This document shows, piece after piece, positions 59,988 to 61,374 of a stretch of DNA of 64,000 nucleotides. The position numbers were made by a program, and so were the translations under genes. The notes below the pieces were generated by a model. That model did no database searches. It saw only the letters and a program-made list of their open reading frames with translations, and was not told the DNA's origin. The stretch is from Rickettsia sp. (GTDB taxonomy: Bacteria; Pseudomonadota; Alphaproteobacteria; Rickettsiales; UBA1997). How positions within the stretch are numbered: the stretch's first letter is position 1; each line of letters starts with the position of its first letter. The stretch is from the NCBI GenBank assembly GCA_038131245.1, contig JAYPPA010000002.1, positions 32,354 to 96,353 on the forward strand, given 5' to 3'.

Positions 59988-61374
59988 TAAGGTAGTAACT
60001 TTTGGCTGTCGTTTAAATTTCTATGAAAGCGAAGGAATTAGGGCTGCTGTTAAGGCTTCGAATCAAGATAATCTGATTATATTTAATAGCTGCGCTGTTA
60101 CTTCTCAGGCTGAACAACAGCTGCGTCAGGCTGTGCGTAAAGCTAGGCGAGAAAATCCAGATGCGAAAATTGTGGTGACGGGATGCGCTGCGCAAATAAA
60201 TCCGAAGAAATATGCTAAGATGGATGAGGTAGATTTGGTGCTTGGTAATGATGAGAAGGATAAGAAAGAGAGTTATTTAGAGTCTGATAATGTTGATAAA
60301 GATACCCCGGCTCTAAAGAGCCACCCCTCTAATAGAGGGGAATTTCAGAGTTCACCAGTTACTTCTCACCAAGACAAGCTGTTCTTTAGTAATCTTGAGA
60401 AAAATCTCGATGAGACGCTAACAAAAGCTCAGGAAAATAAAATTAAGGTCAATGATATTATGTCGCTGAGGGATACTGCGCCGCAAATGGTGTCGTATTT
60501 CGAGAATAAAACGCGGGCGTTTCTAGAGATTCAAAATGGTTGCAACCATCGTTGTACATTTTGTATTATTCCGTTTGGGCGTGGTAATTCTAGGTCGGTG
60601 ATGTTTGGTGATATTGTGGCGCAAACGCGGGCGATGGTTGTGGCTGGACATAAAGAGGTGGTGCTGACTGGTGTGGATATTTCGGATTATGGCAAGGATT
60701 TGGAGCTGAAGATTACGCTGTCACAGATGATTAGGCGGCTTTTGGCTCTGGTGCCAGAACTTCCGAGGCTTAGGCTTTCCTCGATTGATGTGGCGGAAAT
60801 TGACGATGAGTTGCTGGAAATTATTGCTAGTGAGAAAAGATTTATGCCTTATTTACACATAAGTGTTCAGTCTGGCGATGATATGATCTTAAAGCGCATG
60901 AAGCGCCGCCATAATCGCGCCCAAGTGATTGAGTTTTGTGCTAAAGTGCGTGAACTGCGGCCTGATGTGACTTTTGGGGCGGATATTATTGCTGGATTTC
61001 CGACTGAAGATGATGAAATGTTCGAAAATTCTCTAAATCTAATTAAAGAGGCGGGAATTGTCTTTACGCATATTTTTCCATATTCAAAGCGCGATGGAAC
61101 GCCTGCTGCAAAAATGCCGCAAGTTAATGGCGGAATAATAAAAGAGCGAGCAAGGTTACTTCGCGAGGCGGGTATGGCTGAACTTAATTCATATTTGCAA
61201 AAACAAATTGGTAAGAAATTTGCAGTTATTGTTGAGGGTGATGGGACGGCAAAAACCGAGAATTTCTTAGATGTTGATTTAGGTGAGTGCAAGGTGGCTC
61301 AAGATGCTAAAAAAGGCGATATTATCGAAGTTGAGATTATGGGTGTTAAAGATGGGAAATTGATTGTAGGATAA
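59962..61374 (+). CDS. mtaB: radical-SAM methylthiotransferase MtaB (ms2t6A) carrying an in-frame repeat insertion
   Basis: VVTFGCRLNFYESE N-terminal MTTase domain, GCNHRCTFCIIP radical-SAM cluster, C-terminal TRAM-like region. Start taken at MTIGAEDS (59962). Confidence 0.8.
   Translation: MTIGAEDSNKVVTFGCRLNFYESEGIRAAVKASNQDNLIIFNSCAVTSQAEQQLRQAVRKARRENPDAKIVVTGCAAQINPKKYAKMDEVDLVLGNDEKDKKESYLESDNVDKDTPALKSHPSNRGEFQSSPVTSHQDKLFFSNLEKNLDETLTKAQENKIKVNDIMSLRDTAPQMVSYFENKTRAFLEIQNGCNHRCTFCIIPFGRGNSRSVMFGDIVAQTRAMVVAGHKEVVLTGVDISDYGKDLELKITLSQMIRRLLALVPELPRLRLSSIDVAEIDDELLEIIASEKRFMPYLHISVQSGDDMILKRMKRRHNRAQVIEFCAKVRELRPDVTFGADIIAGFPTEDDEMFENSLNLIKEAGIVFTHIFPYSKRDGTPAAKMPQVNGGIIKERARLLREAGMAELNSYLQKQIGKKFAVIVEGDGTAKTENFLDVDLGECKVAQDAKKGDIIEVEIMGVKDGKLIVG
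60304..60352. repeat. family-A palindromic-element arm embedded in frame in mtaB
   Basis: accccggctctaaagagccacccctctaatagaggggaatttcagagtt aligns with the reverse complement of 38823-38866 (ccccggcgctacgcgccaccccccctataaataggggggaatt). Confidence 0.65.

Follow-up and report, generated by a model that had tools for sequence, protein, structure and literature searches.

The mtaB gene of a Rickettsia sp. assembly (GCA_038131245.1, contig JAYPPA010000002.1, positions 32,354 to 96,353; this 64-kb stretch, analysed as a whole, is referred to as the window) encodes an enzyme composed of a methylthiotransferase (MTTase) domain and a radical S-adenosylmethionine (radical-SAM) core. Between these two parts, mtaB carries one copy of a hairpin-forming repeat that we designate family A. 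The copy is 58 nt in length, contains two mini-hairpins and is read in frame within an intact gene. We interpret it, with a probability of about 0.8, as a solo unit resembling repetitive extragenic palindromic (REP) sequences that was fixed in frame in a disordered MtaB linker after one ancestral insertion, that passed a filter of survival and that belongs to a family associated with DUF559 genes. The hypervariable stretch of MtaB in which the unit lies is predicted to be disordered.

The repeat unit in the mtaB reading frame

The gene and the parts of its linker are arranged as follows.

59962–61374, + strand: mtaB, 470 aa, intact (open reading frame list; TIGR01579 equivalog)
60277–60366, + strand: hypervariable linker segment, residues 106–135, 30 residues, LESDNVDKDTPALKSHPSNRGEFQSSPVTS (homologue alignment)
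60293–60350, + strand: solo family-A repeat unit, in frame, encoding approximately NVDKDTPALKSHPSNRGEF (covariance model, nhmmer)
60309–60322, + strand: hairpin 1, GGCTCT-AA-AGAGCC, with a variable stem, CGGC head and CCA tail (minimum-energy fold; helix 1 covaries in 130 copies)
60324–60340, + strand: hairpin 2, CCCCTCT-AAT-AGAGGGG, followed by AATT (the helix 2 of the family, conserved in sequence)
60367–60438, + strand: clade-conserved linker extension, residues 136–159, HQDKLFFSNLEKNLDETLTKAQEN (HQDKLFF...AQEN), outside the repeat unit
60541–60564, + strand: radical-SAM cluster motif CNHRCTFC (sequence; C194, C198 and C201 are invariant columns)

The protein was assigned as MtaB by the NCBIfam equivalog TIGR01579, with a score of 436 bits against a cutoff of 357, and the cysteine triad of the MTTase domain (C16, C44 and C75) and the cluster cysteines (C194-x3-C198-x2-C201) are invariant in an alignment of 74 sequences. 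The intact 470-residue open reading frame (ORF) agrees with the original prediction that the frame is preserved and that the segment is positioned between the MTTase domain and the CxxxCxxC cluster. Across the repeat segment the ORF reads ...DTPALKSHPSNRGEFQSSPVTSHQ... / ...DKDTPALKSHPSNRGEFQSSPVTSHQ..., and the mtaB frame is the only one of the six frames across the unit that is free of stop codons.

The linker (SY...KIKVNDIM) comprises 54 residues compared with approximately five in the MtaB proteins of Rickettsia, Midichloriaceae and Jidaibacter, close to the 50–60 additional residues that had been estimated. In an alignment of 120 homologues, the excess of ~49 residues over Rickettsia MtaB consists of two parts. 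The first is the hypervariable stretch, which is present in all relatives and varies in sequence and length to the extent that it cannot be aligned between lineages; its length is 18–61 residues in 57 distinct mtaB linkers from fetched loci of related freshwater Rickettsiales metagenome-assembled genomes (MAGs) and ~11–70 residues in the 120 homologues. The second is the 24-residue extension HQDKLFFSNLEKNLDETLTKAQEN, which is conserved throughout the freshwater Rickettsiales MAG clade (MtaB 64–83% identical) and missing from Rickettsia, Midichloriaceae and Jidaibacter MtaB; its residues His136, Asp138 and Phe141 are invariant or nearly so in 74 relatives. The unit codes for ~19 of the 30 hypervariable residues. 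The proposal that the insert accounts for the excess therefore holds for ~19 of the ~49 residues, with 24 belonging to the clade-conserved extension and the rest to the hypervariable stretch.

In an AlphaFold2 model based on the 74-sequence alignment, residues 112–136 have a predicted local distance difference test score (pLDDT) below 50 and show no secondary structure, and a helix (residues 137–147) follows. This prediction places the insert in a disordered loop; the unit would contribute ~19 translated residues (..NVDKDTPALKSHPSNRGEF..) to a surface loop in which they are tolerated, and catalysis would be undisturbed. The 24-residue extension is partly helical in the model and is possibly an older domesticated insertion.

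The relationship to family A was established at the nucleotide level. The right arm at 38822–38890, taken as its reverse complement, aligns with the mtaB segment in 35 of 44 columns, with the mini-hairpin CCCCTCT-AAT-AGAGGGG included, as had been proposed on the basis of a 49-mer that occurs exactly once (60304–60352, + strand). A profile of three family-A arms from which mtaB was excluded matches 60291–60345 in an nhmmer search within the window (E = 1.8e-4). A leave-out covariance model (R2), built from seven copies and including neither the present mtaB copy nor the second one described below, scores 60294–60349 at 39.6 bits (rough E ~6e-12) against a non-family background of 12 bits or less, so that the similarity is formally significant by both methods. 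The motif GCCACCYCYCT..AGRGRGGAATT matches only three arms and mtaB in the window, with zero matches expected by chance. The two hairpins of the mtaB unit constitute its minimum-energy fold (RNA, −19.8 kcal/mol with z = −3.6; DNA, z = −3.8).

The shortness of the match (58 nt), the modest nhmmer E value and the metagenome-type assembly could suggest a chance resemblance of a GC-rich, hairpin-prone linker or a repeat mis-assembled into the gene. This explanation is effectively refuted by the score of the leave-out covariance model, by a second occurrence of the unit, in another organism that was assembled independently (ENA), by the occurrence of the identical MtaB protein in both NCBI and Logan assemblies and by the intact reading frame and catalytic motifs.

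A second inverted arm was not found in mtaB on either strand by the profile or the covariance model. The remaining model matches in the gene are a self-match of hairpin 2 on the minus strand (9.2 bits) and background of 4.5 bits or less. The mtaB insert is a solo unit and not a complete palindromic element of two inverted units; the insertion of a palindromic element, as first described, is thus retained as an in-frame member of the repeat family and reduced to a single 58-nt unit. Two further candidates were rejected. The 5′ flank GAGTCTGATAATGTTGAT is not a copy of the DUF559 3′ end (GAGTTTGATGGTGTGTGC), as LE.D/LE.N also occurs in an orthologue that lacks the unit (L082), and UNCG or GNRA tetraloops in hairpin 1, which would have hinted at a function as RNA, were dismissed because most loops are C-G-closed triloops that do not discriminate between a function as RNA and one as DNA.

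Orthologues and the origin of the unit

The closest orthologue (P0002/L081), which derives from an independent ENA metagenome and a different organism, is 83% identical in protein and 80.2% identical in nucleotide sequence and contains a family-A unit at the same place (35.5 bits with model R2). The window and L081 hardly differ in hairpin 2 and the 3′ flank (CCACCCCTCT, AGAGGGGAAT and TCAGAGTTCAYCAGTTA), which are conserved above the gene average. In the flank TCAGAGTTCAYCAGTTA, which follows AATT and lies outside the family consensus, 16 of 17 aligned bases are identical. The two versions of hairpin 1, GGCTCT-AA-AGAGCC for the window and CTGAC-TTC-GTCAG for L081, are both perfectly paired and have no stem position in common. 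Each of them recurs in an unrelated metagenomic copy, that of the window identically in L118 (2627) and that of L081 in L147, and identical hairpin-1 and hairpin-2 sequences are found on unrelated contigs.

The next orthologue (P0003/L082; 79–80%) is without the unit, as it gives no significant match to the covariance model, and has an unrelated 31-residue segment of about equal length in its place. Among the fetched loci, L081 is the only relative with a family-A unit in mtaB. The alignment of orthologues therefore shows an in-frame repeat in an intact gene whose residues are missing from orthologues other than L081, which bears out the proposed resemblance in behaviour to Rickettsia palindromic elements (RPEs), and it delimits no clean indel.

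The unit would date to the common ancestor of the window and L081 lineages or would have been inserted twice. A single insertion with subsequent replacement of hairpin 1 is favoured because the nonconsensus 3′ flank is common to the two genes. The unit may have entered, or been copied into, the common ancestor of the window genome and its 83%-identical relative; both hairpins would have been kept since then, with hairpin 1 wholly replaced, most plausibly by gene conversion of a short patch, with other copies in the genome as donors, or by palindrome-templated repair.

Several observations weigh against this account. The head of the mtaB copy is CGGC rather than the majority CGTC, and the copy scores ~25–30 bits below the intergenic copies of the window itself. 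The 64 kb contain only five family-A units. There is no clean empty site, as the 79–80% identical orthologue has an unrelated 31-residue segment and no gap. Finally, the total difference in hairpin 1 between the orthologous copies could mean that two independent insertions occurred at the same site. In such a scenario, the window and L081 lineages would each have gained a different family-A variant through an element or endonuclease that targets the linker. This would explain why the hairpin-1 stems have no position in common in genes with 80% identity and why each hairpin-1 variant recurs elsewhere, and other repeat families have hit the same linker repeatedly. We nevertheless regard it as unlikely: the near-identity of the flank outside the family consensus argues for one orthologous insertion, and the other families in the linker differ in sequence and in offset, which makes a single shared target site unlikely.

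Palindromes in the linkers of relatives

The linkers of 13 of the 57 relatives fold with z < −4 and minimum free energies (MFE) down to −80 kcal/mol, and the other 44 have no detectable structure (z above −4). When the remainder of these 57 genes was scanned in 90-nt windows (1593 in total), no window folded comparably (criterion MFE < −30, z < −4). An earlier control with windows of the same length and 40 mononucleotide shuffles had placed four of 114 controls below z = −4; these are judged to be noise because the stricter scan of 1593 windows found none. The linker is the only site in MtaB at which relatives carry strong palindromes. Read at the DNA level, the strong linker palindromes belong to at least six unrelated families and include the following.

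L212 (P0016), GTAGGGGCGGACC...GGGTCCGCCCCTAC, and L213 (P0029): GTAG-tagged REP doublets (REPINs)
L011, L015, L030 and L031: CGTC-tagged REP dimers
L009 and L028: dimers with inward-facing heads
L005 and L014: AAAAGGGGTCAGACCCCTTTT doublet
L007, L008, L017 and L020: heptad-repeat palindromes

A further copy of the L030 linker element lies on the same contig at a distance of 2.7 kb. The linker palindromes of the relatives (GTAG doublets, CGTC dimers and others) are all in frame. In the heptad-repeat group the stems differ in sequence and the palindrome is kept, which is the same pattern as that of hairpin 1 between the window and L081.

The confinement of strong palindromes to this domain boundary (13 of 57 linkers versus none of the 1593 windows), the retention of both hairpins in two lineages despite the complete turnover of hairpin 1 and the above-average conservation of hairpin 2 and its flank would all be expected if the hairpins were selected for function, with different lineages recruiting different palindromes. 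Such a function could be an mRNA structure that slows ribosomes during folding or cluster acquisition of the MTTase, or a role in mRNA decay. We consider this to be very improbable. Most of the relatives' linkers (44 of 57) have no detectable structure, and Rickettsia and its relatives are almost linker-free, which implies that structure at this position is dispensable; moreover, gene conversion within a repeat family would alone be sufficient to maintain palindromes.

The hot spot is most likely to reflect a survival filter, in which insertions occur anywhere but are kept only if they are in frame, free of stops and situated in a dispensable loop. In compact genomes, such insertions in a permissive loop would be the only ones to escape purifying selection, so that survival rather than targeting would produce the pattern. 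Targeting and selection for mRNA structure are both disfavoured by the 44 unstructured linkers and by the differences between the element families and between their offsets.

Family A, DUF559 genes and known palindromic elements

The remaining family-A units of the window are located as follows.

38821–39352, + strand: family-A source-type element with unit(−) 38821–38880, DUF559 gene 38912–39292 and unit(+) 39289–39352 (covariance model, Pfam)
38693–38775, + strand: extra unit(+) 38712–38775 with a 20-nt copy of the DUF559 3′ end (repeat D8, covariance model)
35454–35514, + strand: fifth family-A unit, at the 5′ end of the lnt ORF, read ...KKTPRLASPSTLLIEANS... (nhmmer E = 1.2e-4 for 35452–35508; covariance model 52–59 bits)

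A covariance-model search with filters off found no further family-A copies in the 64-kb window beyond these and the mtaB unit, five in all. Elsewhere, a scan of metagenome contigs with the hairpin-2 motif gave at least 120 contigs from very different environments, and the covariance model recovered 130 full units in 80 retrieved loci, many of them not picked by the motif. The unit is composed of ACACCCCG(T)C, a freely varying hairpin 1, (G)CCACC, the conserved hairpin 2 (CCCTCT..AGAGGG) and AATT, and the consensus can be written as AACACCCCGTC, variable stem-loop, (G)CCACCCCTCT, loop and AGAGGGGAATT. In the 130 copies 92% of pair cells are paired compared with 77% in shuffles, and none of 500 shuffles reaches the observed value, for an alignment fitted to the model. 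All four Watson–Crick pair types are represented among the inner pairs of helix 1, and helix 2 is conserved in sequence. The stems of hairpin 1 are GC-rich and 4–6 bp long with loops of 2–4 nt; its head is CGTC in 75 copies, as in the window units at 38712 and 39289, and CGGC in 16, and the CCA tail is present in 95. Units lie in long open frames in 15% of cases versus 70% of random positions, and 25 of 26 adjacent unit pairs are inverted.

At the Rfam gathering threshold, a search of the whole window returned tRNA only, and permissive Rfam searches of 38600–39400 and 60200–60450 gave only sub-threshold noise. The family-A unit is not a curated RNA family. Family A is a widespread, mostly intergenic REP-like family of which we found no description in the literature searched. 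One metagenomic locus (L128, 6415–13242) contains an open stretch of more than 2200 codons with two family-A units on the coding strand (7869–7928 and 9839–9896); these units may represent additional cases of in-frame capture, by a giant protein.

The DUF559 protein of the window (126 residues; PF04480, E = 8.6e-27) is encoded between two units in opposite orientation. Repeat D8 is a 78-nt direct repeat that is 94% identical to 39270–39347, and unit(+) 38712–38775 is the remnant right end of a second DUF559 element. The segment 38693–38890, previously taken for a full family-A palindrome, is in reality this remnant, which makes up the supposed left arm, beside the left terminal unit of the intact DUF559 element; it is recognized as a junction of two elements because unit(+) 38712–38775 carries the 20-nt DUF559 3′ end.

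DUF559 homologues with 55–72% identity are found in Firmicutes, Francisella, Caedibacter, Scalindua, Desulfuromonadales and an Aenigmarchaeota archaeon, and this level of identity across such taxa suggests horizontal spread. Over-long gene calls of homologues translate the flanking units, with ...NTPSLRDTPLQEGN at the C-terminus and SPL.EGWQAKPDGV (from the reverse-complement unit) at the N-terminus. In four fetched DUF559 loci (L205–L208), all 14 model matches in 18 kb fall no more than ~350 nt from the DUF559 gene, which has unit(−) on its upstream side and unit(+) on its downstream side. Three more brackets were found among the metagenomic loci (including L139, L115 and L134; in L134 the downstream unit is in the opposite orientation), so that the arrangement is known from seven loci besides the window in diverse taxa, including Firmicutes, Francisella, Desulfuromonadales and an Aenigmarchaeota archaeon. 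In none of the loci examined was a REP-associated tyrosine transposase (RAYT) seen beside the units. Another relative (L013, 4405–4546) has an inverted family-A doublet immediately behind its mtaB stop codon; the ACACCC ends are face to face with no gene between them, and the doublet may represent the DUF559 element in an 'empty' state. The literature searched contained no paper that ties DUF559 to repeats or mobile elements. These loci show that DUF559 genes and family-A units are associated; the endonuclease may mobilise the units in the manner of a RAYT or may home into them.

In lnt (ORF 35421/35445–37031), the unit directly follows the ATG at 35445 and precedes the LNT_N domain, which starts 41 residues into the protein. 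A 528-residue lnt gene call in an independent assembly (L209) takes in the unit. It is either coding or part of a 5′ leader with a downstream TTG start.

Other repeats were also observed in the window. A second palindromic family has two intergenic copies (41590–41722 and 58118–58240), which are dimers of the form TGTC-ATYTCGARC...GGGAT...GACA and are consistent with the TGTC variant of the CGTC-tagged REPs; one copy is located just upstream of a queH-like ORF at 58269. A repeat scan identified 99-nt repeats (a 33-residue, ankyrin-like period) and a perfect 141-nt tandem repeat of ~2.2 copies at 50500–51560 and 45957–46271, respectively.

In-frame palindromic insertions are a textbook oddity of Rickettsia genomes. 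In the account of Ogata et al. (2000) given in PMC10969869, RPEs are palindromic repeats of ~150 bp that are present as whole elements, in frame, in protein-coding genes. As far as that account goes, the mtaB insert resembles them in being a hairpin-capable repeat in frame in a Rickettsiales housekeeping gene, with the host gene intact and the peptide placed where the fold tolerates it, and differs from them in being a single 58-nt unit instead of a whole element. The family-A model has no matches in 13 Rickettsia mtaB loci (~7 kb each), and Rickettsia mtaB is without an insert at this site. The mtaB unit can be described as RPE-like by analogy of behaviour.

A closer structural comparison is offered by the CGTC-tagged REP superfamily, which includes CGTC-1 (RPE-6) and CGTC-4 (RPE-4) of R. 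conorii (Di Nocera et al., 2013; PMC3733652). Its members have an unpaired CGTC (or TGTC/CCTC) head, a stem of 8–9 bp starting with A/T, a loop of 4–5 nt and a CCA tail; intragenic copies are known, and the 2013 survey reported no dedicated transposase for REPs of this type (PMC3733652). Family A has in common with them the CCA tail (95/130, and also in the mtaB copy) and the occurrence mostly as inverted extragenic dimers; a CGTC head is present in 75 of its 130 copies. It differs in its short GC-rich stems (4–6 bp) and small loops (2–4 nt), in the second conserved hairpin with AATT that is always attached, in the CGGC head of the mtaB copy and in the bracketing of a DUF559 gene by its units. 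The lengths of stem and loop place family A outside the CGTC superfamily.

The organization of family A also recalls the REP/REPIN–RAYT system (Bertels & Rainey, 2011; PMC3116915), with short extragenic hairpin units that form mainly inverted doublets, solo units elsewhere and a small gene between cognate units, of which there is one copy in the window. The gene, however, encodes a PD-(D/E)XK (Vsr-like) nuclease of the DUF559 family and not a tyrosine transposase of the IS200/IS605 type, the units have no GTAG head and family A spans phyla and an archaeon. On account of the enzyme, family A does not belong to the REP/RAYT class. The Vsr/DUF559 fold (group 58 of a survey of PD-(D/E)XK enzymes) includes a homing endonuclease (PMC3424549). 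Homing endonuclease genes of this fold are comparable in that a small free-standing gene lies precisely between the halves of a repeated palindromic site and empty doublets exist; the differences are that there is no intron or intein context here and that the site is a dispersed repeat and not a unique gene.

The insertion itself is ordinary for Rickettsiales, and the DUF559-unit system is the lead that could matter more widely. The capture of palindromes in frame extends to freshwater Rickettsiales MAGs of the free-living type, and a single linker of an essential tRNA-modification enzyme has independently taken in six or more unrelated repeat families, which makes the MtaB linker a replicated system for studying which peptides a fold tolerates and how repeats turn into coding sequence. 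More tentatively, and at somewhat less than even odds, we suggest that the two-hairpin unit and the DUF559 gene that it brackets represent an undescribed selfish-element system of Bacteria and Archaea, the solo units of which, together with GTAG and CGTC REPs, seed coding sequence in the MtaB linker. If this is so, the DUF559 system would correspond to REPIN/RAYT with a PD-(D/E)XK enzyme, or would be a homing endonuclease with a dispersed palindrome as its target; DUF559 could supply the enzyme that is 'missing' from one branch of the CGTC-tagged REPs, and the MtaB linker would be a natural replicated experiment in the extension of a protein by mobile palindromes. DUF559 is a large family for which we know of no function; its link to the repeats makes both this question and that of the enzyme behind CGTC REPs experimentally testable.

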